Assembly: GCA_030584185.1 (NCBI GenBank)
Contig: CP129495.1
Span: forward strand, 1,789,469-1,853,468
Origin: Acidimicrobiia bacterium
GTDB taxonomy: Bacteria; Actinomycetota; Acidimicrobiia; Spongiisociales; UBA11373
Reading direction: 5' to 3'
DNA length: 64,000 bases
The notes under the pieces: generated by a model
What the model saw: the letters and a program-made list of their open reading frames with translations, nothing else
Database searches by the model: none
What the model was told of the DNA's origin: nothing
In this document: positions 4,499 through 64,000 of the stretch, one piece after another
Layout: every line of letters starts with the position of its first letter
Numbering within the stretch: position 1 is the first letter of the stretch
Program-made: the position numbers and the translations under genes

Positions 4499-5284
4499 GT
4501 GATCCAGATGGAAGACGATGTCCTCTTCGACGAGACCGACGGGATCGCCACCGTCACCCTCAACCGGCCCGACCGGCTCAACACACTTGCCATCCCGACC
4601 GTCGACCTGCTGATGGAGGCGCTCGGCGAGGCCGCCGCCTCTCCTGCCCGGGTGGTGGTGCTCGCCGGGAACGGGAGGGTGTTCTGCGCCGGCGCCGACC
4701 AGGGCGAGATGGTGCCCCGGTCATCGGCGGAATGGGAGGCGATCGTGCGCCACTACCTGGACCCGATCCGGGCGCTGGTGGGCATGGACAAGCCGGTGAT
4801 CGCATCGCTCCACGGCGACACCGTCGGTGGCGGCCTCGGCCTGGCCATGGCCTGCGACATCCGGATCGCCGCCACCGGGATCCGCCTCGGGGCCCCATTC
4901 ACCAAGATCGGCCTCGCCGGATGCGACATGTCGGCCGGGTGGTTCCTGCCTCGCCTGATCGGGTTGGGTGCCGCCGCCGAGCTGATGTTCACCGGCCGCC
5001 TGGTGGATGCCGAGGAGGCGCTGGCGATCGGACTGGTCCATCGGGTGGTGGCCGCCGACGACCACGCCGCCGAGGTGCGGCGCTGGGCGGAGCGCATGGC
5101 GGCCGGGCCGCCGATCGCCCACGCCTGGACCAAGCGGGCCCTGCATCGCTCGCTGGGCACCGACATGGACGGCGAGTTCGAGTTCGAGATCTTCGCCCAG
5201 GTGCAGTGCCTGCAGACCGAGGATCACCGCGAGGGGGTGGCCGCCTTCCAGGAGCGGCGCCCGCCGGAGTTCCGCAATGCGTGA
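4499..5284 (+). CDS. enoyl-CoA hydratase/isomerase (crotonase)
   Basis: crotonase fold motifs 'TLNRPDRLN', 'FCAGAD', '[19 protein letters not shown]'. Confidence 0.85.
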   Translation: MIQMEDDVLFDETDGIATVTLNRPDRLNTLAIPTVDLLMEALGEAAASPARVVVLAGNGRVFCAGADQGEMVPRSSAEWEAIVRHYLDPIRALVGMDKPVIASLHGDTVGGGLGLAMACDIRIAATGIRLGAPFTKIGLAGCDMSAGWFLPRLIGLGAAAELMFTGRLVDAEEALAIGLVHRVVAADDHAAEVRRWAERMAAGPPIAHAWTKRALHRSLGTDMDGEFEFEIFAQVQCLQTEDHREGVAAFQERRPPEFRNA

Positions 5285-6422
5285 CACGCCCGAGCGCTCC
5301 CGGTTCCGGGAGGAGGTGGCACGATTCGCCGCCGCCGAGGTGGCGCCGAACCTTCGGGAGTGGGATGAGTCCGACGCCTACCCGCAGCACCTGTTCCCGC
5401 GCCTCGGGGCCTTGGGCTGGCTGGGTGTCGGGATTCCCGAGGAGGTGGGCGGGTCCGGGGGAGGCCCGTTGGATCGCTGCGCCTTGTTCGAGGAGCTGGC
5501 GGCGGTGTCGCCCGGTGTCGCCCTGGGCATCTACGTGCACGCCGTCCTCGCCTCGGGCGCTCTGGCGACCGTCGCCTCACCCGACCTTCGGCAACGGTTC
5601 CTACCCGGTCTGCTCGCCGGCGAGGTGACCGGGGCCTGGGCGTACGCCGAGCCCGAGGCAGGCGCCGACGTGACCCGGGTCCGGCTGGCGGCCCGTCGCC
5701 ACGGGTCCGGCTTCGTGCTCGAGGGGACCAAGCTCTACATCACCAACGGCACCTTCGCCGACCTGATCCTGGTCGTCGCCCGAACCTCGGGAGAGCCGGG
5801 GTCGCTGCGCGGGCTGACCGTGTTCGCCGTCGACGGGGAGTCGCCCGGCCTGTCCCGACGCCCGATGGCCAAGCTGGGCATGCACCCGTCTGAGCTGGCG
5901 GAGCTCCACTTCGACGGCGTGGAGGTCGCCGCCGACCGGGTGCTCGGTGACGACGAGGGAGGCTTCCGGGCCTGCCTGCCGGTGCTCTCCCAGGGTCGCA
6001 TCTTCGGCGGGGTCATGGCGGTCGGCCTCGGCCGGGGCGCCCTCGGCGCCGCCGTGGCCCACGTCGCCGCCCGGGAGCAGTTCGGCGGACCGCTCCACAG
6101 GCAGCAGGTGGTGCGCTTCACGATCGCCGACATGGCGGCACGCCTCGCCGCCGCCCGTGCCCTGGTGTACGGCGCCGCCGCCGACCTCGAGGCGGGACGG
6201 CCGTACGACACGGCGGCGTCGGTGGCCAAGCTGGCCGCCTCCGAGACCGCCACCTGGATGGCGGAGCGGGCCATGCATCTTCACGGCGCCGCCGGCTACG
6301 TCGCCGGAAGTCCGGTGCAGCGGTTCTACCGCGACTGCAAGATCATCGAGTACGGCGAGGGTGCCAACGAGGTGCAGCGGGAGATGATCTTCGAGGCGGC
6401 TGCCAAGGGATGGCGGCCCTGA
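5277..6422 (+). CDS. acyl-CoA dehydrogenase
   Basis: ATG at 5277 overlapping the hydratase end; ACAD motifs (YITNG, 'EYGEGANEVQREMI'). Confidence 0.85.
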   Translation: MRDTPERSRFREEVARFAAAEVAPNLREWDESDAYPQHLFPRLGALGWLGVGIPEEVGGSGGGPLDRCALFEELAAVSPGVALGIYVHAVLASGALATVASPDLRQRFLPGLLAGEVTGAWAYAEPEAGADVTRVRLAARRHGSGFVLEGTKLYITNGTFADLILVVARTSGEPGSLRGLTVFAVDGESPGLSRRPMAKLGMHPSELAELHFDGVEVAADRVLGDDEGGFRACLPVLSQGRIFGGVMAVGLGRGALGAAVAHVAAREQFGGPLHRQQVVRFTIADMAARLAAARALVYGAAADLEAGRPYDTAASVAKLAASETATWMAERAMHLHGAAGYVAGSPVQRFYRDCKIIEYGEGANEVQREMIFEAAAKGWRP

Positions 6423-26960: not shown

Positions 26961-27037
<77 letters not shown>

Positions 27038-27104: not shown

Positions 27105-27130
27105 GCTCCATCGCACATCCATCGCACACG
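27105..27130. repeat. 'CCATCGCACATCCATCGCACA' motif, copy 1 (att-arm-like)
   Basis: same motif at 30787 and 59106. Confidence 0.6.
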
Positions 27131-29154: not shown

Positions 29155-29486
29155 GCCACGACCAGACGAACTCGCAACGCCATGATCTCCATCCAGGTGA
29201 TGGGCCGTAGGATTCGGTGCCCCGCGTGACAGGTCCATTCGACATGGCTCATGGGTTGAACGAGTTCTCAATCGCCGGAAAGCGCTACCTGCTCGTCGGT
29301 GTTTCCGCCAGCCACCTTGCGGGTCTCGCCGGTGGCGACGTGCCGGGGCGTGGCGCACTGGCGGAATGGCGCACCGGGGTGGAACCCTGGGCCGCCTCGT
29401 ACAATCTCGATTCGCTCCGGGATCCGATCTGGAACCTGAACCTCCCCGGGTTTCTTGGAGGCTCCGACCTTTGGGAGGATGGAGCC

Positions 29487-29813
29487 ATGACACGGAGACA
29501 GCAGGGGAAGTATCCGAACGAGGTGCGCCGTCGGACGGTGCGTCTGGTGTTGGAGCATCGTGACGAGTACGCCTCGGAGTGGGCGGCGATCACGTCGATA
29601 GCGGCCAAGTCGGGGATGACGGCTGAGACGTTGCGCAAGTGGGTGCGCCAGGTCGAGGTCGATGAGGGCCGGCGGCCGGGGGTGACGTCGGAGGAGTCGG
29701 TGCGGGTCCGGGAGCTGCAGCGCGAGAACCGGGAGCTGCGTCGGGCGAATGAGATCCTCAAGGCGGCGTCGGCTTTCTTCGCGGCGGAGCTCGACCGCCC
29801 ACAGCAGAGATGA
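29487..29813 (+). CDS. IS3-family transposase OrfA (HTH)
   Basis: '[21 protein letters not shown]' plus leucine-zipper region; RBS GGAGG. Confidence 0.85.
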
Positions 29814-30721
29814 TCGGGTTCATCGACGCTCACAAGGGGCGTCGCACTGAGGGTCTTGTTTGGGGAGTCGAGCCGATCTGCGCGGTGTTGCCGATCGCTT
29901 CTCAGACCTACTACGCGGCCCGGTCCCGGCCGGCTTCGGCGAGACGGCTGCGCGACGAGGCCCTCGAGGCCGAGGTGCTGCGGGTATGGGAGCAGAACTA
30001 CTCGGTGTATGGGGCCCCGAAGATCTGGGCGCAGCTGAACCGAGAAGGCATCATCGTGGCCCGTTGCACGGTGGAGCGTCTCATGCGCCGGTTGGGTATT
30101 CGCGGCGCCATCCGTGGCGGAGGACCCCGGACCACGAGAAGCGACCCGGCCGATGAGCGTCCCGCCGACCTGGTGGATCGGGACTTCACCGCCGAGGCTC
30201 CCGACACCAAGTGGGTGGCGGACTTCACCTATGTGCGCACCCGTTCGGGGTTCGTGTATGCGGCGTTTGTCATCGACTGCTACGCACGAGCCATCGTGGG
30301 CTGGAACGTGGCGCGGCGCATGACCACCGACCTGGTACTCACCGCACTCGAACAGGCCATCTGGGACCGACTCGGAGCCGGCGTCGTGGCCGGTCTCGTC
30401 TGCCACACCGACGCCGGAGCGCAGTACTTGTCGATTCGTCACACCGAACGACTCGCTCAAGCCGGCATCGACCCGTCGGTGGGATCCATCGGCGACAGCT
30501 ATGACAATGCCCTGGCGGAGTCGATCATCGGGCTCTACAAGACCGAGCTCGTCTCGAACCTAGGACCCTGGCACGGCTGCGACGATCTCGAACTCGAGAC
30601 CCTGCTCTGGGTCGACTGGTGGAACCACCGTCGACTCATGGGCACCTCCACCCCCGACGAAAAGGAGGCCACCTACTACCTTCAGAACACCACCATCGAA
30701 GCGATGACACTCAAGACATGA
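29810..30721 (+). CDS. IS3-family transposase OrfB (DDE integrase core)
   Basis: DDE residues in 'VADFTYV', 'HTDAGAQY', 'YKTE'; ATG overlaps the orfA stop (ATGA), in the -1 frame. Confidence 0.85.
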
Positions 30722-30770
30722 AGCCTCTACCAAACCCGGGGAGGTTCATCGAGGCTCGGCAGTGCCCACC

Positions 30771-30930
30771 CCTCCGATTCCCCTCCATCGCACATCCATC
30801 GCACAAGAGAGTGTGATGGGACGGTGGAGAACGCGAAATGACGCGAACCAAGAACGCCGTCTGAGCAGGCATTTCGCCCGTTTCCCCAGGTCGGCGGCTA
30901 ACCCGGACTCGGGCTCATAATTCGAAGAGG
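30771..30930. repeat. ~130-nt island-boundary repeat (copy 2) ending in a degenerate tRNA-Met fragment (30903-30920)
   Basis: about 80% identical to 59101-59240; contains hairpin CCATCGCACAAGAGAGTGTGATGG. Confidence 0.65.
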
Positions 30931-35798: not shown

Positions 35799-36401
35799 TC
35801 AGGGTCGCTCCTCGATCAGTTCGGTGTCGGGTCGGAAGGTCGACCAGGAGAACCAAAAGGTCCTGAGGTGGGTGATCGGCTCCAGAGTCTCACCGGTGAG
35901 AGGGCCGTCTGTGGCTTCACCGAGAATGTTCCAGGTGCTGCCGGTCTCCTCGTCGATGAAGCTGTCGCCTTCTGCCTGGAAGGTGAGCGTCTGGTCCTCG
36001 ACGACGGGCGAGAAGACTCCTACGGTTCCCACTTCGCGTCCGCTCGCCACCGATGAGGTTTCGAGGGCGGACGCTTGTCCGGGCTTCCAGAATATGACGA
36101 TCGGTTCACCGGCGAACTCGCCGACCGTCACGGTGGCCGTGTCTTCGTCTTCCCGGAGCGAGTCGAGGGTCCAAGCGACAGCGTCGTCTCCTTTCTCCAT
36201 CGCCACCACTCGTTGCATTGCCTTCGCCCGCACGTCGACGTCACCGCGGAAGAGGAAGGGTTGGCCGTCGGGGTCGTCGAGCCCGGTGTATGGGTTGGTT
36301 CCGTAGGCCCGTTGAGCTCCGGTGCGGTTTCTGTCGAGGACCTTGGCATCGGGTTTCGACTCTTTGAAGTCGCCCCAGGCGACCATTCCCGATGGGATGA
36401 A
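35799..36401 (-). pseudogene. DUF3179-family gene fragment, 5' end lost at the IS insertion
   Basis: reading frame continues up to the IS left end at 36402 with no N-terminal region. Confidence 0.5.
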
Positions 36402-36428
36402 TGAACCTCCCCGGGTTTGGTAGAGGCT

Positions 36429-37340
36429 TCATGTCTTGAGTGTCATCGCTTCGATGGTGGTGTTCTGAAGGTAGTAGGTGGCCTCCTTCTCGGTGGGGGT
36501 GGAGGTGCCCATGAGTCGACGGTGGTTCCACCAGTCGACCCAGAGCAGGGTCTCGAGTTCGAGATCGTCGCAGCCGTGCCAGGGTCCTAGGTTCGAGACG
36601 AGCTCGGTCTTGTAGAGCCCGATGATCGACTCCGCCAGGGCATTGTCATAGCTGTCGCCGATGGATCCCACCGACGGGTCGATGCCGGCTTGAGCGAGTC
36701 GTTCGGTGTGACGAATCGACAAGTACTGCGCTCCGGCGTCGGTGTGGCAGACGAGACCGGCCACGACGCCGGCTCCGAGTCGGTCCCAGATGGCCTGTTC
36801 GAGTGCGGTGAGTACCAGGTCGGTGGTCATGCGCCGCGCCACGTTCCAGCCCACGATGGCTCGTGCGTAGCAGTCGATGACAAACGCCGCATACACGAAC
36901 CCCGAACGGGTGCGCACATAGGTGAAGTCCGCCACCCACTTGGTGTCGGGAGCCTCGGCGGTGAAGTCCCGATCCACCAGGTCGGCGGGACGCTCATCGG
37001 CCGGGTCGCTTCTCGTGGTCCGGGGTCCTCCGCCACGGATGGCGCCGCGAATACCCAACCGGCGCATGAGACGCTCCACCGTGCAACGGGCCACGATGAT
37101 GCCTTCTCGGTTCAGCTGCGCCCAGATCTTCGGGGCCCCATACACCGAGTAGTTCTGCTCCCATACCCGCAGCACCTCGGCCTCGAGGGCCTCGTCGCGC
37201 AGCCGTCTCGCCGAAGCCGGCCGGGACCGGGCCGCGTAGTAGGTCTGAGAAGCGATCGGCAACACCGCGCAGATCGGCTCGACTCCCCAAACAAGACCCT
37301 CAGTGCGACGCCCCTTGTGAGCGTCGATGAACCCGATCAT
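36429..37340 (-). CDS. IS3-family transposase OrfB
   Basis: 303-aa protein identical to 29810..30721. Confidence 0.85.
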
Positions 37341-37663
37341 CTCTGCTGTGGGCGGTCGAGCTCCGCCGCGAAGAAAGCCGACGCCGCCTTGAGGATCTCA
37401 TTCGCCCGACGCAGCTCCCGGTTCTCGCGCTGCAGCTCCCGGACCCGCACCGACTCCTCCGACGTCACCCCCGGCCGCCGGCCCTCATCGACCTCGGCCT
37501 GGCGCACCCACTTGCGCAACGTCTCAGCCGTCATCCCCGACTTGGCCGCTATCGACGTGATCGCCGCCCACTCCGAGGCGTACTCGTCACGATGCTCCAA
37601 CACCAGACGCACCGTCCGACGGCGCACCTCGTTCGGGTACTTCCCCTGCTGTCTCCGTGTCAT
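37337..37663 (-). CDS. IS3-family transposase OrfA
   Basis: identical to copy 1 orfA. Confidence 0.8.
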
Positions 37664-37713
37664 GGCTCCATCCTCCCAAAGGTCGGAGCCTCCAAGAAAC
37701 CCGGGGAGGTTCA

Positions 37714-38818
37714 CTGCTTCAGCCTGCATCCCGGGGAGGATGTGCTGATAGGTGGCCATGGTGAAGGCGGGACTGGAGTGCCCGAGTCGTTCCGATACCA
37801 CCTTGAGTGGCACTCCGGCCTTGAGGAGGAGACTGGCGTGGGTGTGTCTGAGGTCGTGGAGGCTGATCCGGGGCAGCGTGGTCTTTGCGACCGCCCGTTC
37901 GAACGCCTGGGACAGTGAGTGGGGATGCATGACGGTCCCGTCCGGTTTGGTGAACACGGGCCCTTCCTGGTCGTGGCCTCCGGTTTCGTTCTGCTGGTGG
38001 TGTTGCCACCTCACAAGCATTTCGATGGTGTTCGGATCCAGGTCGACGGTGCGCCGCGAGCTCCGGGTCTTGCCGGGACTCTCATGGACCTCGTATCCGA
38101 TGGAGACGACGGACCGGCAAACCGACAGGCGACCGGCGTCGAAGTCGACCTGACCCCACCGCAAGCCGAGGATCTCGGATCGTCGCATACCAGTGTGGGA
38201 GGCGAGCCAGAACGTGGGGTGGTGCCGTAGCCCAGAGGTCTGTTGGAGGAAGCAGCGGAGTTGTGCGGCGGTCCACACCCGGTGTGCTCTGTTCGTGTTG
38301 CGTCGGTGTTTGGGGGCGTTGGCGGCAGAGGCCGGGTTGTCCCGCAGTAGGTGTTTGCGTACCGCGTCCCCGAAGGCGGCTCGCAGGATGACGTGGATTT
38401 CGAGGACTGTCTTCGGTGAGAGTCCTCCTCTGTGGTCGGACCGTCCCTCTTCGAGGAGCAGGTTGTAGAGCTGTTCGAGCTGGTCGGGTTGCAGCTTCCG
38501 TAGCACCACGTCTCCGATGTGGGGGATCACGTGGAGGCGAACCATCCGCTGGTATCCGGCGAAGGTGACCGGTGCGAGTTGGAGCTGTTTGGCGGGCAGC
38601 CAGTAACGGAGGAGGAACCCGGCGACGGTCATCTGCGATCTGCGACCCGATCTCCGTTCCTCCTCTCTGGCTCCGAGTTGTGCCGCAAGCGCTTCAGCCT
38701 CGGCGCGGTCGGTGCCGGCCGGCACCCAGCGTCGACGCTCCTTGCCGGTCTCGGGATCGACACCTTCGTAGACCACCGCATACCAGCGGTGACCTTTTCG
38801 AGCTATGTAGCCGTTCAT
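37714..38818 (-). pseudogene. int: tyrosine-type site-specific integrase, 3' end disrupted by IS insertion
   Basis: '[12 protein letters not shown]' and '[10 protein letters not shown]' catalytic region; the ORF reads through into the IS end ('...MQAEA|VNLPGFLGG'). Confidence 0.8.
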
Positions 38819-55421: not shown

Positions 55422-55600
55422 CGCGGCAGGACGAGCTGCTCCATCGCGCGAGAGGGTGCGATGGGATGGTCAAGACGCGAGATGACGCGAACCAGGGCGG
55501 TCGGCTTCGGAACCACCACGCCCTCTTTCTCGTAGAAACGCAGCGCTGACACCGTGAACCCGGTGTCTCGGGCCGCTTCGGAGATCTTCAAACCATCCAT
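55394..55600 (-). CDS. MerR-family HTH fragment
   Basis: 'LKISEAARDTGFTVSALRFYEKEGVV' HTH only; no dimerisation or metal-binding region in frame. Confidence 0.45.
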   Translation of the reverse strand: MDGLKISEAARDTGFTVSALRFYEKEGVVVPKPTALVRVISRLDHPIAPSRAMEQLVLPRCRVEPAIR

Positions 55601-57861: not shown

Positions 57862-58082
57862 TCGGGACGCGCCGAGAACGAGAAGGATGCACCCGTGATC
57901 CCGTTCGCCGGCGGGCGAAGGCGGCATAGTGATGACAACGAGATTCTCGGTATCACCGGAACCCTGTTCGACGGCCTCTACGCCTGGCTGCACCGACGGC
58001 ACGGGTGACAGACACGCTTGATTGACAAATGCGAGCCGGTGGCAACTTCTCTGCGCCATTGGCCGTAGTTACCGTCCGTCTC

Positions 58083-59100
58083 ATGAGCGACGGCGCGCAA
58101 CCCGACCATGGTGGAGAACGTAGGTCGCATGGTCTGTGGCATCGACTCGTCCATCTGTTGAGCCACGACCATGACCACGGTTCGGCGCACAAGGTGTTGG
58201 ATGCGGGAGCCGAAGGCATCCGCGCCACCAAGATCTCGCTGGTTGGTCTCGGACTTACGGCTCTCTTGCAGGCGCTCGTTGTTGTTCTCAGCGGCTCGGT
58301 TGCCCTGGCTTCCGACACCCTCCACAATCTCGGCGACGCCCTAACCGCAATCCCCCTCTGGATCGCCTTCTCCCTGGGCAGACGCAGCCCCACCCGCAGC
58401 TACACCTACGGCTACCACCGCGCCGAAGATGTCGCCGGAGTCGTCATCGTCCTCGCCATCGGCGCCTCCGCCGCGCTCATCATCTGGGAATCGGTGCAGC
58501 GTCTCCTCGAGCCGCGACTCATCGATTACATCCCCTGGGTGATCGCAGCCGGTCTCATCGGCGCCGCCGGAAACGAGCTTGTAGCCCGATACAGGATCCG
58601 AGTGGGCAGACGGATCGGATCAGAGGCGCTGGTCGCCGACGGTCAGCACGCCCGCACCGACGCCCTCACCTCGCTCACCGTCGTGGTCGCCGGAATCGGC
58701 GCCGCCTTCGGAGCAGCCTGGGTGGACCCTGTTGCCGGGCTCGTTGTCGCCCTGGTGATCCTGCGGCTGTTGTTCCGATCGGCACGGTCGATCACGCGGC
58801 GTCTCCTCGATGCTGTCGACCCGGAGCTGGTCGACGGGACCGAGAAGATCATCGCCGGGGTGGATGGGGTGCTAGCCGTTACCGATCTGAGGCTTCGTTG
58901 GCACGGACACCAGCTTCACGTTTCCGCGTGTGTGGCCGTCGATGCCGACCTCACCGTGGCCGCCTGGCCACGAAACCGCTCACGAAGTCGAACACGCACT
59001 CCACCACGCCTACAGCTTCCCGGTAATCACAATGATCCACATCGACCCAGAGGGCCAGACGAGCGCCCACGACGCCACCGCCCACCACCGGCATTGAGTA
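58083..59100 (+). pseudogene. cation diffusion facilitator with frameshift near 58960
   Basis: CDF motifs up to 'VAVDADLTVA'; the conserved C-terminus 'GHETAHEVEHALHHAY...HIDPEG' continues in the +1 frame to TGA at 59098-59100. Confidence 0.6.
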
Positions 59101-59282
59101 GGTTCCATCGCACATCCATCGCACAAGAGAGTGCGATGGGACCGTCAAGAACGCGAAATGACGCGAAGCGAAAATGCCGTCTGAACAGGCGTTTCGCGGA
59201 TTTGCCCTGGTCAGTGGACACCCCGGACTCGGGCTCATAACCCGAAGGTCGCGGGTTCAAATCCCGCCCCCGCTACTACCGA
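59101..59282. repeat. ~130-nt island-boundary repeat (copy 3) plus 46-nt tRNA-Met 3' fragment (59231-59276)
   Basis: 59231-59276 is identical to tRNA positions 26990-27035; upstream part about 80% identical to 30781-30910. Confidence 0.8.
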
Positions 59283-59332
59283 AGGTCCTGGTCAGAGCGA
59301 TTTCTGGCCAGGGCCTTGTCGCGCTGACGGCC

Positions 59333-59355
59333 ATTCTTCTAACGGATCTTCTAAC
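59333..59355. repeat. 23-nt direct repeat CTTCTAACGGATCTTCTAACGGA (left copy)
   Basis: identical copy at 61318-61340. Confidence 0.75.
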
Positions 59356-59414
59356 GGACGCGTCCGAAGGAGTCCGTCCTGGAGATGCGACCGGGATCGT
59401 CCCCTGCTGCGAGA

Positions 59415-59669
59415 TCACAACGGACGACCCAACCGAGTCGGCGCGCAGGATCGCCCGTCGATATGGCCAGGCGGAGATGCCCCTTGACGACGACGCGCCA
59501 AAGGAGCTGCCTCAAGACGCATCCTGTCCGGGTCGCTATATATCACCTTCGCGCCGGCGACTGGGGCTCGTTGGTCGATCGCCATCCCGAGGGCACTGGT
59601 CACCAGCGTGGCAGTGGCCGATGAGTCGATCGACCATCCGACGACGCGGCGGCTGAACGTGTCCAACAC
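59415..59669 (-). pseudogene. IS3-family transposase (OrfB) remnant
   Basis: 'LDTFSRRVVGWSIDSSATATLVTSALGMAIDQR' aligns with '[33 protein letters not shown]' of the intact OrfB. Confidence 0.55.
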
Positions 59670-59718
59670 GACGGCGCAGTAGACCTTGCCTTCGCGCGTG
59701 CGCCGCTCGTCATTCGGA

Positions 59719-60576
59719 CTACCTCGGTTCGCTCCGGGCGCTGGCCCAGAACGCTCGGAGGATGATCATCGCCTGGTCGACGGTGGCTTCGGCAAGCCCG
59801 AGTTCGTCGGCGAAGGCGGGATAGTCCTCGGTCCAGAAGAGGGGCGGATCGGGCAGCTCGTCCGGAACCGGGTGGGTGGCCCGTACCGAGAAGACGTGTT
59901 GGGTCGCACTCATGGCTCTTCCTGCGTCGAGGCCTCCATGGATGAAGGCGACCATGTCGGCCAGGTCTTTGACCCTGGTGTTGTCTCGAGCGTCCCATGG
60001 TCGAGTCATGGCGTGGACCTTCTCGGCGAACTGCTGGGCGACGTCGGTCGCTTCGACTTCGAAGTCCTCGAACCCGGCGAAGGACAGGAGAGAGGTCAGC
60101 GGCAGCATCTCGGTGCTGGTCAGCTCATCGGTCCTGGCGACCACGTCGACCCGAACCGTGGCGAAGTTCCTGCCCGCCAGGTCGGCGGAGACACTGAAGC
60201 GCCACCCTGGCCGACCTGCCTGGTCTGTCTCGAGAGCGGTCGGTTCCGACACGTCGAACAGGAAGCCGTCACCTGCCGGATCGATCGAAACGGCAGCGGT
60301 AAGGCGCTCATGGGCTTCGATCGCACCTTCCGCGTCGGTGCGAAGGTTGAGGTCGAGGTCCTTGGTCATCCGGGCCGAGTCACCGATGCGAAGCTCGACG
60401 GCCATGCCGCCCTTGACCACCCACATCCCCGGCTGACTGGTGATCAGGCGGAGCAGGATTCGTTCGAACACCACCCGACGGCGGAGCCGATTGAGGTCCG
60501 TGCCCGTCTCGCGGGCCTGGTTGAGCAGTCGTTGCTCCAGGGCCTGGCGGAAGGCGCCGACGGACTCATAGGTCAC
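59719..60576 (-). CDS. abiEii: AbiEii/AbiGii-family nucleotidyltransferase toxin (type IV TA)
   Basis: 285-aa protein with conserved N-terminal motifs of the family; overlaps the AbiEi-like gene. Confidence 0.7.
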   Translation of the reverse strand: MTYESVGAFRQALEQRLLNQARETGTDLNRLRRRVVFERILLRLITSQPGMWVVKGGMAVELRIGDSARMTKDLDLNLRTDAEGAIEAHERLTAAVSIDPAGDGFLFDVSEPTALETDQAGRPGWRFSVSADLAGRNFATVRVDVVARTDELTSTEMLPLTSLLSFAGFEDFEVEATDVAQQFAEKVHAMTRPWDARDNTRVKDLADMVAFIHGGLDAGRAMSATQHVFSVRATHPVPDELPDPPLFWTEDYPAFADELGLAEATVDQAMIILRAFWASARSEPR

Positions 60577-61172
60577 AGCACACCTGCTTGGCGGAGAGCT
60601 CGTTCCATTCGCAGGGCCTCGCGGTGTCCTCGGTGTTCGGCCTCCCGTCGTAGTTGCTGCGGGGCAGTGTGAGGAGCAAGGTTGGAGACGTTCTTCACCA
60701 CCTCGGTGAGTTGTTCCAAGCTGAGATCGCTCGCTGCGGAATCGATGGCGGTTCGGAATGGGGTTGTGATCCGATACCCCTCACGATCCCACACGTCGCC
60801 GTCGGCCAGCTCCCCGTGGTGGAGGACGACCCCCTTTGCTCTGGCGCGGAAGCCCGGCGGAACCGTGAGGTGCACCCGGCTGGGGTTCACGTCGGCGAGG
60901 TCGTGGATCGAGATGGCGGTGTCGTGGGAGACCACCCCGAGACCTCGGCTCCAGAGCGTCCACCTGACGAGGTCGTCGTGATCACCGACCGGCCACTCGG
61001 GGAGCCGGTAGATGCCGCGGGCGACACGCTGCCAGTTGCCTCTTTGCGTGTGATAGCTCTGGGCGGGGTAGGAGTAACCGAGGTCGAGCGCCTGGCCGGC
61101 GGAGAAGTAGCCGCTCTGGATGGCGGCCAGACGACGAAGCTTGTGCTGGACATCACGGCGATCGGTCGACAT
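60573..61172 (-). CDS. abiEi: AbiEi-family antitoxin/transcriptional regulator
   Basis: 199-aa protein, N-terminal winged-helix 'LRRLAAIQSGYFSAGQALDLGYS'; ATGA overlap with the toxin. Confidence 0.65.
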   Translation of the reverse strand: MSTDRRDVQHKLRRLAAIQSGYFSAGQALDLGYSYPAQSYHTQRGNWQRVARGIYRLPEWPVGDHDDLVRWTLWSRGLGVVSHDTAISIHDLADVNPSRVHLTVPPGFRARAKGVVLHHGELADGDVWDREGYRITTPFRTAIDSAASDLSLEQLTEVVKNVSNLAPHTAPQQLRREAEHRGHREALRMERALRQAGVL

Positions 61173-61317
61173 CCCGGGTCACCTTCGTTGAAGTTTGGTG
61201 CGTCATTATTGCACAAACCTTCAACTCTTTTGAAGGATTCTGCGGTTCAGACCGCCTGCCGGGTGGCGACCTCAGGCGCCACCAGGCATAGTGCCGAGAA
61301 ACCGATCGATCCCGGAC

Positions 61318-61340
61318 TTCTAACGGATCTTCTAACGGAT
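61318..61340. repeat. 23-nt direct repeat CTTCTAACGGATCTTCTAACGGA (right copy)
   Basis: identical to 59333-59355. Confidence 0.75.
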
Positions 61341-61445
61341 GGGACGTCACGAGGGGTTACCCACAGGCATCAGCCATCACGCCGATTCCGCGAAAGCCCA
61401 GGTAGTGAGCACCATTGAGCATCAGCGAGAACCAACCAGAACCCC

Positions 61446-61488
61446 CGGCGAGGAACTCATAACCCGAAGGTCGCGGGTTCAAATCCCG
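61446..61488. repeat. 43-nt tRNA-Met 3' fragment (attR-like core, copy 4)
   Basis: identical to tRNA 26993-27035. Confidence 0.8.
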
Positions 61489-61490
61489 CC

Positions 61491-61530
61491 CCCGCTACGG
61501 AGCAAGGACCCAGGCCGTGCCTGGGTCCTT
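61491..61530 (+). terminator. hairpin GGAGCAAGGACCCAGG-CCGTG-CCTGGGTCCTTGCTCC
   Basis: perfect 16-bp stem immediately after the tRNA fragment. Confidence 0.55.
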
Positions 61531-61819
61531 GCTCCGTCGACACCGGTCAGTCAATCTCACCGGCTCCGCCGAACCGGCAAGACCTCCCCCTATCCGGTGC
61601 CGGTTGACCAGTCTCCTCACCTCGCGTCAGGACTTCCTTGGCCGTTGCCCCCACGTCCACGCTCGCGGCGGGTGTCGGCGCCCCCGCCCAGACCGGCGGC
61701 GTCGCGGCACATGATCGAACCGAGCAGCAGCTTGGCCGCGTAGCATGCGCCACGACCTGGAACGCCTCCAACCGTGGCGGCTGGGGCGAGCCTGGATCGG
61801 CGCCGACCAGGAGGGCACC

Positions 61820-62284
61820 TCATCGGCGCGGTCGTCGTGCGCTCCCCGTCATCGTGTCGTAGAGGTACTCGAAGCTCTCGTAGAGCCGAGGGTCGTCTGA
61901 ACGGGCACGCGCCTCCGCCACGACGGGGGCAACCTTCTCCCAGAGCTGGCGCGCCGAGTTCCCCAGGAGCATCTCGACCAGATCCCGCTCGATCAGACCT
62001 CGTCGCAGGAGGATGCCGACCTGATCGTAGAAGGTGAAGAGATAGGTCCCGATGTGTCTCTGACCCCCTAGGACCTTCATGAGGGAGTCGTAGCCGTCGA
62101 AATCGGCCCAGTAGACCCGGTGGAACGCCTCCTGGAATTCGAGTGAGTCGAACGTCGCGTACAGTCGCATGACCAGGTCGGCCCGGCGCACCCTGGTCTG
62201 GTTCCAGATCTGGAAGCTGTAGAAGATGCTCGCCGCGATGACGCTCGCCGCGGCGATGATCACCGAGACGGTCGCCACGCTCAC
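61820..62284 (-). CDS. hypothetical N-terminally membrane-anchored protein
   Basis: GTG start around 62284 ('VSVATVSVIIAAASVIAASIFY'); the longer track ORF has an Arg-rich, implausible N-terminus. Confidence 0.35.
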   Translation of the reverse strand: MSVATVSVIIAAASVIAASIFYSFQIWNQTRVRRADLVMRLYATFDSLEFQEAFHRVYWADFDGYDSLMKVLGGQRHIGTYLFTFYDQVGILLRRGLIERDLVEMLLGNSARQLWEKVAPVVAEARARSDDPRLYESFEYLYDTMTGSARRPRR

Positions 62285-62529
62285 TCGAGCGGCTCCGGCG
62301 GTCGGCTGGCACGGGTACCGTCGCTCATGCCGCGCGACTCTAGATCGACGACCACGCCCTGGCCTGCCAGGACACTCCCGTCGACCCTCACCCTCCAGGG
62401 TCTTGTCGCTCTCGACCAACACCGACCCCGGGCGCCGGCGCGGGCCCGCCCGATGGCGGCGAACCAAACGATCCTTCTGCTCAGGCCTGCTCCTCTAGCC
62501 TTGCACCGGGTCGCAATCGGGGGTGGCCG

Positions 62530-64000
62530 GTGATCGTGGACGGGAGGGGTGTTGCTCCGGGGACGGTGATCGCAACCGGAGTCTGCATCGTGGGCGGTGG
62601 GGCGGCGGGGATCGCCATCGCCATGCACCTGGCGGGGCGCGGACACCAGGTGACCATTCTCGAAAGCGGGGGCCTCGACTTCGACGCCCGCACCAACGCC
62701 CTCAACCAGGGGGAACTGGCCGGCGAGGACATGACCTTCCTCGGCACCCCGCGCCCCCTGGATGCCACCAGGCAGCGGTTCCTCGGTGGCTCCACCAACT
62801 GCTGGTTTGGATGGTGCCGTCCCCTCGATCCGTGGGACTTCGTGGAGCGCCCCTGGGTGGCCCACAGCGGATGGCCGATACCCCGCAGCGAGATCGAGCC
62901 CTGGTTCCCCGATGCCGCCGCCCTGGTGCAGATCGGCCCTCCCGACTTCGGCGCCCAGTCGTGGGAGGCGCTCGGTGGAGGTCCGGTGATCGTCGACACC
63001 CCACTGATGACCACCACGATGTTCCAGTTCAGCGCTCCCACGCGGTTCGGTTCCGTCTACCGCGACGCCCTGGAGTCGAACCCCGGGATCGAGGTCTACC
63101 TGTGGTCGAACGCCGTCAACCTAGATGCCGCCCCGGCGGGCGAGCGTGTCACCGGGGTCGACGTCGCCACGCTCGACGGGGGCCGATTCCGGGTCGAGGC
63201 CGACACGGTGATCCTCGCCACGGGCGGGGTGGAGGTGCCGCGCTTGTTGCTCGCCTCCAACAACGTCGCCACGGCAGGCCTGGGAAACCAGAACGGGCTC
63301 GTGGGGCGGTTCTTCATGGAGCACCCGTACATGGTGGCGGGATACGCCCTCTTCGACCGTCCCGCCGATGCGTTGCGGCTCTATGCCATCAGCCCCTACG
63401 GCCTACCGGGTTCGGATCGAGAGGTGGCAGCCGTCGGATCGATCGTTCCCACCCTGGAGGGCCAGGCCCAGGTCGGCAGCCTCAACGTGGGGGCCATGCT
63501 CTACGAGGTCGATCCCGACACACCGGTCGACCGGGATGGTGACCTGGTGAGCCCGGCGCAGATGCGTGCCATGCTCGGCGCCCTCGAGGGTGCCGGCGAC
63601 TTCACCCTGGTCGCCATCCACCTTGCCGCCGAGCAGGTGCCCAACCCCGAGTCACGGGTGATGCTGCTGTCGGACACCGACGAGCTGGGGATGCCCCGCG
63701 TCGCCGTGGATTGGCGCCACTCGGCCCTGGACCGCGACAGCCTGGCGTCGTGCCTGGGGCTGCTCGGCGGGGAGCTCGGCCGCCTCGGCCTGGGGAGGGT
63801 CCTCGTCGAGCCCGAGGGTGTGGGGCCGTGGGGGCGAGACTTCAGCGTCTCCAGCCATCACATGGGAACGGCGCGGATGTCCGCCGATCCTTCGTCGGGA
63901 GTGGTCGATGCCAACTGCCGGGTGCACGGCGTGGAGAACCTCTATGTGGCCGGGAGCGCCGTGTTTCCGACGGTGGGGAGCGCCAACCCCACATTCACGA
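62530..64000 (+). CDS. GMC-family FAD-dependent oxidoreductase, 3' partial
   Basis: open frame to the window end, not in the ORF track; 'CIVGGGAAGIAIAMHL' FAD fold, 'GGSTNCW' GMC signature; the track ORF 62523..63542 is the wrong frame. Confidence 0.7.
   Translation, partial: MIVDGRGVAPGTVIATGVCIVGGGAAGIAIAMHLAGRGHQVTILESGGLDFDARTNALNQGELAGEDMTFLGTPRPLDATRQRFLGGSTNCWFGWCRPLDPWDFVERPWVAHSGWPIPRSEIEPWFPDAAALVQIGPPDFGAQSWEALGGGPVIVDTPLMTTTMFQFSAPTRFGSVYRDALESNPGIEVYLWSNAVNLDAAPAGERVTGVDVATLDGGRFRVEADTVILATGGVEVPRLLLASNNVATAGLGNQNGLVGRFFMEHPYMVAGYALFDRPADALRLYAISPYGLPGSDREVAAVGSIVPTLEGQAQVGSLNVGAMLYEVDPDTPVDRDGDLVSPAQMRAMLGALEGAGDFTLVAIHLAAEQVPNPESRVMLLSDTDELGMPRVAVDWRHSALDRDSLASCLGLLGGELGRLGLGRVLVEPEGVGPWGRDFSVSSHHMGTARMSADPSSGVVDANCRVHGVENLYVAGSAVFPTVGSANPTFT

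Follow-up and report, generated by a model that had tools for sequence, protein, structure and literature searches.

The DNA analyzed here, hereafter referred to as the window, is the full stretch of 64,000 nt from the genome of an Acidimicrobiia bacterium (contig CP129495.1). Close to its right end lies a segment of about 2.2 kb (positions 59277-61498, hereafter the islet), in which an AbiE toxin-antitoxin gene pair is enclosed by fragments of a tRNA-Met gene. Protein domains were assigned by Pfam, and the AbiE proteins were in addition examined by PADLOC and by structure matches in PDB. The only supported genes between the two distal tRNA-derived cores were abiEii, abiEi, and an rve-domain fragment, in agreement with an earlier note on this DNA, in which the segment was described as containing nothing other than a transposase remnant and the abiEi-abiEii pair. 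As for the core positions proposed in the same note, the first (59231-59276) was correct but the second (61446-61488) lies 10 nt too low, the exact position being 61456-61498, and the third core copy, located in a real tRNA gene 32 kb upstream, was not part of that description. The coordinates of all features are listed in Table 1.

The 43-nt core CTCATAACCCGAAGGTCGCGGGTTCAAATCCCGCCCCCGCTAC (CTCATAACCC...CCCGCTAC) spans the tRNA-Met gene from the anticodon loop through the 3' strand of the acceptor stem. Exactly three exact copies were present in the window, and none was found in 100 shuffles. The similarity of the second copy to the tRNA-Met gene extends beyond the core, its surroundings at 59229-59283 matching the gene by 98% over 55 nt. 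Rfam search at E values up to 1 detected only sub-threshold tRNA matches on the two fragments and spurious miRNA matches on the terminator hairpin. The GGG/CCC anticodon stem with three G-C pairs and the C1xU72 mismatch, both of which are marks of bacterial initiator tRNA, can be read from the sequence of the complete gene, and the target of integration appears to be an initiator-type tRNA, not an elongator tRNA-Met. Different, very stable hairpins follow the three cores, with folding energies of -21, -30.5, and -40.9 kcal/mol and z-scores from -4 to -9. The presence of a different strong hairpin behind each core suggests that each inserted element brought a replacement of the tRNA 3' half together with its own terminator. 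The rightmost hairpin is then probably the original terminator of the tRNA-Met gene, and in four contigs of related strains (L121-L124) the right flank behind the islet is the same.

Just inside each end of the islet, the earlier note had pointed out identical 23-nt repeats, each an 11-nt tandem. This was confirmed: the 23-mer CTTCTAACGGATCTTCTAACGGA consists of an 11-mer repeated with a 12-nt period (2 x CTTCTAACGGA), and exactly two copies exist in the window, both at the islet ends. Further copies were found neither in the window, even with up to three mismatches, nor in 100 shuffles. Since the cores are exact and the P' and P arms are both complete and match the family consensus described below, the islet keeps both attL and attR. 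Between the arms, the Pfam rve domain was recognized (1.4e-6) on residues 1-46 of an open reading frame (ORF) at 59415-59669. In one strain contig (L126) this transposase ORF runs on past 59532 as a full rve C-terminus, which narrows the remnant in the window to 140 nt. The spacer of 174 nt that precedes it showed no similarity by blastx and blastn to integrases or to any related locus. Residual integrase sequences were sought by blastx and blastn of positions 59340-59740 against 920 ORFs and all related loci, and only the rve scrap was detected; tblastn with four integrases of the family likewise gave no trace within the islet, and no integrase of matching class in the whole window. The islet is therefore an att-site remnant, not a functional recombination module, and is unable to move on its own.

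Table 1. Features of the tRNA-Met locus in the window
Feature	Position	Strand	Evidence or remark
tRNA-Met(CAT) gene, complete, initiator type (as judged from sequence)	26961-27037	+	ARAGORN; sole tRNA gene called in the window
Core copy 1, inside the tRNA-Met gene; attL of the array	26993-27035	+	Exact match
Metal-resistance island, inner unit(s) of the array	27038-59233	.	Repeats, Pfam, GC content, integrase tblastn
Core copy 2, junction (attI) between 32-kb island and islet	59234-59276	+	Exact match; sub-threshold Rfam tRNA match
Terminator-like hairpin in the P' arm of the islet; would follow the rebuilt tRNA 3' end	59282-59317	+	-30.5 kcal/mol, z = -4.1
23-mer, P'-arm copy; proposed arm-type integrase-binding sites	59336-59358	+	Starts 60 nt after the core end at 59276
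Spacer (174 nt) at the place where relatives have the integrase 3' end	59359-59532	.	blastx/blastn
IS3-family transposase remnant, rve core fragment (140 nt)	59533-59672	-	Pfam rve
abiEii, predicted nucleotidyltransferase toxin of type IV system (285 aa)	59719-60576	-	Pfam PF08843 2.6e-28; PADLOC AbiEii 6.3e-80
abiEi, predicted antitoxin and autorepressor (199 aa)	60573-61172	-	PF13338 and PF09407; PADLOC AbiEi 1.1e-63
Putative promoter of abiE and operator-like inverted repeats (I1, I2)	61187-61243	-	Sequence
23-mer, P-arm copy	61317-61339	+	Ends 136 nt before the core T-loop and 116 nt before the core start
Rest of the P arm	61340-61455	+	Alignment of 62 P arms; 79% identity to L063
Core copy 3, attR of the islet and of the whole array	61456-61498	+	Exact match; sub-threshold Rfam tRNA match
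Perfect 19-bp hairpin; chromosomal flank begins here	61497-61537	+	-40.9 kcal/mol, z = -9.0

The distribution of the 23-mer was examined by a scan with the pattern CTTCTAACGGANCTTCTAACGGA of one genome per species, and all comparative counts of loci given in this report are among the matches listed. At least 120 genome stretches, nearly all from metagenome-assembled Acidimicrobiia, carried the motif, including members of Microthrix, Ilumatobacteraceae, Iamiaceae, and Acidimicrobiaceae. The earlier note had proposed to look for the repeat next to tRNA-Met in other genomes, and there it was indeed observed, at set distances from the tRNA-Met core. On the P side (62 alignable loci), the motif lies 124-147 nt upstream of the tRNA T-loop fragment, most often at exactly 136 nt; on the P' side (about 22 loci, 18 of them alignable), the tRNA T-loop is located 80-105 nt upstream of the motif. 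A complete tRNA-Met(CAT) gene, ending 57-73 nt before the motif, was called by ARAGORN in nine of these about 22 P'-side loci, and a tRNA-Val gene in one. The spacings in the window, 60 nt for P' and 136 nt for P, agree with those in the other genomes. In addition, a hairpin is kept in the 18 P' arms at the position equivalent to 59282-59317.

In the alignments of the 62 P arms and 18 P' arms, the conserved stretch reaches from the core as far as the motif and breaks off sharply at the motif's outer side; for all related loci, homology to the window sets in at 61311-61317, and the best P-arm match reaches 92%. The two 23-mers therefore mark the outer edges of an attP of about 290 bp. In elements located beside such sites elsewhere, the core and the hairpin are followed by the element's own direct repeats of about 9-11 nt (GTTCCTCCGG, CTTCTACCGG, GTCTACCGG) and then directly by an integrase gene on the minus strand. 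Because this layout matches the published attP sites of heterobivalent tyrosine integrases on tRNA genes, the 23-mer is likely to represent, by analogy, a pair of arm-type integrase-binding sites of an element family. No match to the 23-mer was found in 2.9 million viral contigs, so the element family is not recognizably phage and a viral origin was discarded.

The exact sequence TTATCCACA, an E. coli-type DnaA box, was observed 17 nt after the 23-mer in 29 of the 62 P arms and 16 nt after it in one more (30/62). It is the most conserved 9-mer of the P arm besides the motif and the core; the window carries at 61357-61365 the sequence TTACCCACA, one mismatch from this consensus. An excisionase or a host factor may bind this box. 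On a low-GC Firmicute contig of a Lachnospiraceae metagenome genome (L118; DBDJ01000051.1, oriented 4650-5558), the 23-mer was also noted, with A for its spacer base; there it starts 84 nt downstream of a tRNA-Val(GAC) gene and precedes by 14 nt the 3' end of a tyrosine integrase gene. This is either an independent use of the arm motif with another tRNA target or a chance occurrence.

The nearest relative of the islet (L063; JAUXCV010000116.1, an Acidimicrobiia metagenome genome) is 83% identical to window positions 59733-61474, a segment that holds the abiEii-abiEi pair with its promoter region as well as the 23-mer and the P arm. A tyrosine integrase gene lies about 1.1 kb beyond abiEii of L063, but it is truncated at the C-terminus, ending before the block with the catalytic Tyr, and the core is cut off after CTCATAACCCGAAGGTCGC. 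Units enclosed by both motifs and cores were also identified in other genomes: a unit of 4.1 kb (L082) carries an AbiEi_2-like and nucleotidyltransferase pair and a DUF6880 gene with no integrase; a unit of 3.3 kb (L026) contains integrase fragments and an AbiEi_2-like/nucleotidyltransferase pair; another unit of 4.1 kb (L107) carries a split integrase; and two units are about 7 kb long (L001 and L034). Among the 47 loci with enough sequence beside the P arm, the neighboring gene is most often part of a toxin-antitoxin pair: an AbiEi_2-like protein of about 355 aa with a nucleotidyltransferase-like partner of about 270 aa in about 12 loci, AbiEii in seven, and Fic/Doc, MNT-like, XRE, RES, or DUF3024 proteins in others. 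A hotspot of toxin-antitoxin and defense cargo thus seems to lie next to the P arm in this element family. Tandem junctions of P arm, core, and P' arm, with toxin-antitoxin genes on both sides, were found at L026, L060, L102, and L134-L136 (for L135, AbiE then Fic). Conjugation or mobilization genes were seen in none of the relatives, and no conjugation genes were identified in the islet or in the neighboring 32-kb island.

The match of AbiEii to PF08843 exceeds the curated cut-off, and the protein aligns with structures of Mycobacterium tuberculosis Rv1045 (MenT3) at 5e-14 over residues 9-276, that is, near full length. Its blocks VKGGmavELR, tKDlDl, aeKvHAmT, and KDLaDm correspond to VKGGsslELR, sKDfDt, aqKlHAvT, and hDLvDl of MenT3 (6y5u), among which we take the catalytic residues of MenT3 to lie. 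AbiEi matched both PF13338 (AbiEi_4, 5.9e-9) and PF09407 (AbiEi_1, 2.6e-6), each above the cut-off; no significant match for AbiEi was obtained among solved structures. The antitoxin gene is located upstream, and its stop codon overlaps the start of abiEii within the 4-nt sequence GTGA at 60573-60576. Two imperfect inverted repeats overlap the sole sigma-70-like site of the region (minus strand, 61205-61234), an arrangement that would be expected for an autorepressed AbiE operon, and the block of putative promoter and inverted repeats is kept in L063. Upon comparison with L063, the ratio of nonsynonymous to synonymous substitution (dN/dS) was 0.16 for abiEii and 0.10 for abiEi, with dS of 0.5-0.6 and identical gene lengths; both genes have therefore been under purifying selection while the surrounding elements decayed. 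Judged from these sequences, the AbiE pair is intact and kept by selection.

A 12-bp inverted repeat (TGCCGGGTGGCG / CGCCACCAGGCA) was noticed at 61257-61288, in the stretch that separates the abiE promoter from the 23-mer of the P arm, and L063 has a similar hairpin (GGTGGCGACC...TCGCCACC). It may insulate the abiE operon from outside transcription.

Strain contigs encoding the exact AbiE proteins were collected from Logan assemblies, which are derived from SRA with k = 31 (about 40 blocks), and 13 distinct contigs were examined (L121-L133). Most of them stop at 59673, the edge of the insertion sequence (IS), and at 61485 after 30 nt of the core, a pattern that k = 31 would produce. The contigs L121-L124, 98.7-99.5% identical to window positions 59673-64000, pass through the core into the same right flank; their attR core contains two substitutions in the T-arm (GTCGTGGGTTCAAGTCCCGC), and the P arm is identical over 156 nt (61300-61455). 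Circular forms were sought in JGI metagenomes, which are assembled with larger k than Logan, by scanning for two motifs 205-235 nt apart. The three two-motif contigs obtained were all tandem junctions without terminal overlap and flanked by cargo, for instance AbiE then Fic, or an AbiEi_2-like gene then a transposase.

These observations altogether indicate that the islet is probably a decayed integrative element similar to a cis-mobilizable element (CIME), which occupies the outermost position of a tandem array at an initiator-type tRNA-Met gene and has been retained through its toxin-antitoxin module. The ancestor of 59277-61498 would have been a self-integrating element driven by a heterobivalent tyrosine integrase, which would have recombined an attP of about 290 bp with the tRNA gene through the shared core from the anticodon loop to the 3' end, every insertion supplying a replacement tRNA 3' half and a terminator hairpin. 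At the outer edge of each arm, P' and P, the integrase would have bound the 23-nt tandem 11-mers as its arm-type sites. The integrase and other cargo would then have been lost, probably via insertion of an IS3-family element followed by at least two deletions, as proposed on account of the spacer, the 140-nt scrap, and the full rve C-terminus in L126. What remains now is attL, a junk spacer, the IS scrap, abiEii-abiEi, and attR. AbiEii as a predicted MenT3-like nucleotidyltransferase toxin and AbiEi as a predicted winged-helix antitoxin and repressor would form a self-regulated pair, which most likely preserved the islet by post-segregational addiction, possibly with added phage defense. By a later insertion, the 32-kb island, whose arm repeats differ, would have come to separate the islet from the tRNA gene. 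Addiction by AbiE, possibly together with phage defense, is a likely explanation for the persistence of the islet, and AbiE has been shown to stabilize an integrative and conjugative element (ICE) in Streptococcus suis (PMC11062541). The earlier note had offered two possibilities, a minimal integrative cassette or a decayed island retaining only its addiction module. The latter is well supported by the two att sites with complete arms but no integrase, by the IS scrap, and by the truncated integrase of L063, the integrase fragments of L026, and the split integrase of L107, these relatives speaking for decay from a self-integrating element. Not described in the note were the tandem array to which the islet belongs together with a 32-kb island, the initiator type of the tRNA, and the conservation of the 23-mer across a whole bacterial class.

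Several observations weigh against this explanation. One of the strain contigs (L125; logan:DRR859398_279753, 2128 nt) consists of window positions 59673-61498 joined to 59277-59578, which corresponds to the attP junction of a 2222-nt circle. The P arm is 79% identical between the window and L063, higher than third codon positions (69-72%) and the adjacent spacer (59%), and both 23-mers are still perfect, which is slightly unexpected in an old dead remnant. No intact integrase clearly belonging with CTTCTAACGGA arms was found; related integrases are present in other elements bounded by CTTCTAACGGA, but mostly as fragments or frameshifted genes, and the binding of an integrase to the 23-mer is therefore argued from position and analogy. 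Furthermore, toxicity, antitoxicity, and phage defense of the AbiE pair are predicted activities, and the order of the insertion events is not provable from one genome. Some of these points, namely the intact arms and 23-mers, the P arm more conserved than neutral sites, and the circle-like junction of L125, would be expected if the islet were still mobile as an integrase-less cassette, excised and re-integrated in trans through an integrase of the family whose gene lies at another place in the genome or arrives with an incoming element. In that case, the tRNA-Met locus of Acidimicrobiia would be an array of exchangeable toxin-antitoxin cassettes, with which the recurrence of bounded islets with decayed integrase or none (L082, L026, L001, L034) and the tandem P-core-P' junctions flanked by toxin-antitoxin genes (three JGI contigs, L060, L102) are also consistent. 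L125 may stem from an excised circle, from a tandem copy, or from a mis-join; since k = 31 is shorter than the 43-nt repeat, a mis-join at low coverage is sufficient to explain it, and it stands alone among the 13 distinct contigs, while the three JGI junctions from larger-k assemblies are tandem, not circular. The window contains no matching integrase, in the closest relative, L063, the core is truncated and the integrase is dead, and the integrase fragments in several islets point to decay, not to an integrase-free design. The P-arm conservation is a sign of past constraint rather than of present activity. We consider this alternative doubtful, and continuing mobility of the islet in trans unlikely. 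In its most extended form, to which we would give slightly less credit, the initiator tRNA-Met locus of Acidimicrobiia would be an integron-like array of short toxin-antitoxin or abortive-infection units, each with an attP-like site of about 290 bp and CTTCTAACGGA arms, from which an integrase supplied in trans would excise, shuffle, and re-insert units (AbiE variants, Fic/Doc, MNT-like, RES, and XRE pairs); the islet of the window would then be a live cassette and L125 its excised circle.

The 23-mers might also be bound within the att site not by the arm-binding domain of an integrase but by an excisionase or directionality factor, a host nucleoid protein, or AbiEi. Antitoxins have been reported to bind att or oriT sites of an ICE, namely attL and oriT in S. 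suis (PMC11062541), the assignment to an integrase is positional, and the second conserved box TTATCCACA in 30 of the 62 P arms implies that additional factors probably bind the arm. However, in most loci the motif stands beside unrelated cargo (Fic, MNT-like, RES, and other AbiE types), and a cargo-specific binder such as the AbiEi of this islet is therefore unlikely; the motif has the same orientation on the two arms and lies at the outer borders of the conserved attP, which is the classic position of arm-type sites, and sister elements carry different tandem repeats at the equivalent position, abutting their integrase genes. Binding by one of these other factors in place of an integrase is accordingly given a low probability. 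The specific proposal of the 23-mer as an AbiEi operator was discarded on the ground that the motif flanks unrelated cargo in most loci. That the repeats and cores might arise by chance, or belong to dispersed genome-wide repeats such as repetitive extragenic palindromes (REP), miniature inverted-repeat transposable elements (MITE), or IS ends unrelated to island borders, was also considered; in the earlier note, repeats common throughout the genome and without relation to island ends had been named as what would overturn its reading. This possibility finds favor in the short length of the repeats only and is scarcely credible: neither pattern occurred in 100 shuffles, the 23-mer appears only twice in 64 kb, at both islet ends, in direct and not inverted orientation, its distance to the tRNA-Met core is set in the relatives (62 P and 18 P' arms aligned), and no match exists in the 2.9 million viral contigs. 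The shuffles, the copy number in the window, and the fixed geometry in other genomes refute it. The readings as an integron cassette or as a MITE were discarded on anatomy, the islet boundaries being tRNA-derived cores with arms; no IntI was found in the window.

Between the tRNA-Met gene and the islet, the 32-kb metal-resistance island forms the inner part of the array. The GC content is 0.62-0.68 between about 27.0 and 62.0 kb, compared with 0.69-0.73 in the flanks. Genes for two cation-efflux (CDF) proteins, ArsR, MerR, and CsoR-type regulators, MerB, a two-component system, and ABC transporters were identified by Pfam, and three P-type ATPase-like genes by reading of the ORFs. The island has its own tandem 11-mer TCCATCGCACATCCATCGCACA (TCCATCGCACA x2), located at 27107-27128 on the P' side, starting about 70 nt after core 1, at 59104-59125 on the P side, ending about 108 nt before core 2, and also at 30784-30805. 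The geometry of these repeats mirrors that of the 23-mers of the islet.

The sole integrase locus of the window, at 37714-38818 on the minus strand, is a tyrosine integrase gene of the island; tblastn with the four integrases of the family detected this locus alone (37715-38818). An IS cuts the gene in such a manner that the catalytic Tyr is kept and about the last ten residues are replaced. Two IS3-family copies of 1313 nt, at 29437-30749 and 36401-37713, are inverted and 100% identical. One of them cuts the integrase gene, and the other borders a DUF3179 gene that is devoid of its N-terminal part (IS flanks at 29217-29436, 35799-36386, and 37714-38818). If the segment between the two copies is inverted, the DUF3179 halves are rejoined in frame, and so is the integrase tail with the arm remnant at 30750, which suggests an IS-mediated inversion within the island. 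Target-site duplications were found at the IS copies in neither arrangement, and the inversion is therefore argued from the in-frame rejoining of the DUF3179 halves and of the integrase tail.

An extra copy of the island P arm was noted at 30781-30927. It is 85% identical to 59104-59247, and the core at its end, TCGGGCTCATAA, is truncated and loses the similarity directly behind the anticodon loop; at 55440-55475 there is a shorter, 36-nt piece of this arm. Such arm remnants point to further accretion, secondary-site recombination, or deletions within the island. The CDF gene at 58029-59097, just before core 2, appears frameshifted: its Pfam domains end near residue 311, and a plausible C-terminus lies in another frame at 58930-59097. 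This gene is either a pseudogene or the product of a sequencing error.

With the decayed, CIME-like nature of the islet as the preferred explanation, the odd tRNA fragments and the 23-mers are accounted for, and the region from 27 to 61.5 kb becomes one accreted array at a tRNA gene. The islet would then be a clear case of a toxin-antitoxin module that has outlasted the mobile element by which it was brought. In the literature searched, no description of integrative elements at tRNA-Met in Acidimicrobiia was found. An undescribed family of such elements with a sharply defined attP is recognized across this little-studied lineage, most of which is uncultured. Defense systems could be sought in this family, and its integrases and attP sites could serve as genetic tools in Acidimicrobiia. 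Moderately new are three points: the conservation of the 23-nt arm motif throughout the class, the hotspot of toxin-antitoxin cargo, and the unproven hint of a circular form; CIME-like remnants in accretion arrays are already known as a kind of element.

Toxin-antitoxin cassettes also occur in chromosomal integron arrays, but the attachment sites of the islet are tRNA-derived and attP-like, different from attC, and an integron integrase is absent. Islands at small-RNA genes resemble the islet in site-specific integration at such a gene; these islands reportedly lie in tandem, mostly keep their own integrases, and carry metabolic cargo. With respect to the attachment site, the closest parallel is the attP of lambda- and L5-type phages and of Cluster J mycobacteriophages, the latter having a 44-bp tRNA core that begins in the anticodon loop, with paired arm-type sites, 10-bp direct repeats, on its two sides (PMC3706429). 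The islet shares with them a core of about 43-44 bp, paired direct repeats of 10-11 bp on both arms, and a total site of about 250-300 bp, but is different with respect to the absence of phage genes and an integrase gene, and the arm binding in the islet is proposed by analogy. The gene pair shares with AbiE of Streptococcus agalactiae and with MenA3-MenT3 (Rv1044-Rv1045) the overlapping bicistron with the antitoxin gene first and the promoter with inverted repeats, as well as the winged helix and C-terminal domain of AbiEi and the DUF1814 nucleotidyltransferase fold of AbiEii; the sequence identity to the characterized AbiE members is low.

As a whole, the islet resembles most the CIMEs, as defined among the ICEs and the IMEs (elements that are integrative and mobilizable) of Streptococcus at tRNA genes or other 3'-end targets, for which a three-step accretion model of integration, decay, and second integration has been proposed (PMC5704250). 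The islet likewise keeps attL and attR without an integrase, stands in tandem with another element at the same target gene, and has an anatomy that fits the three steps, but its host is a high-GC member of Acidimicrobiia instead of Firmicutes and it is known from sequence alone. Because the neighboring island has different arm repeats (TCCATCGCACA), mobilization in cis by the integrase of the neighbor is doubtful, and that integrase gene is also interrupted by an IS; no conjugation or mobilization genes were seen in any relative that would assign the ancestor to the ICEs or the IMEs. In ICESsuHN105, which carries AbiE and SezAT (PMC11062541), a toxin-antitoxin system is likewise located on an integrated element as the part that persists, but in the islet the AbiE pair is almost the sole cargo left, and would thus stabilize itself and possibly the array.

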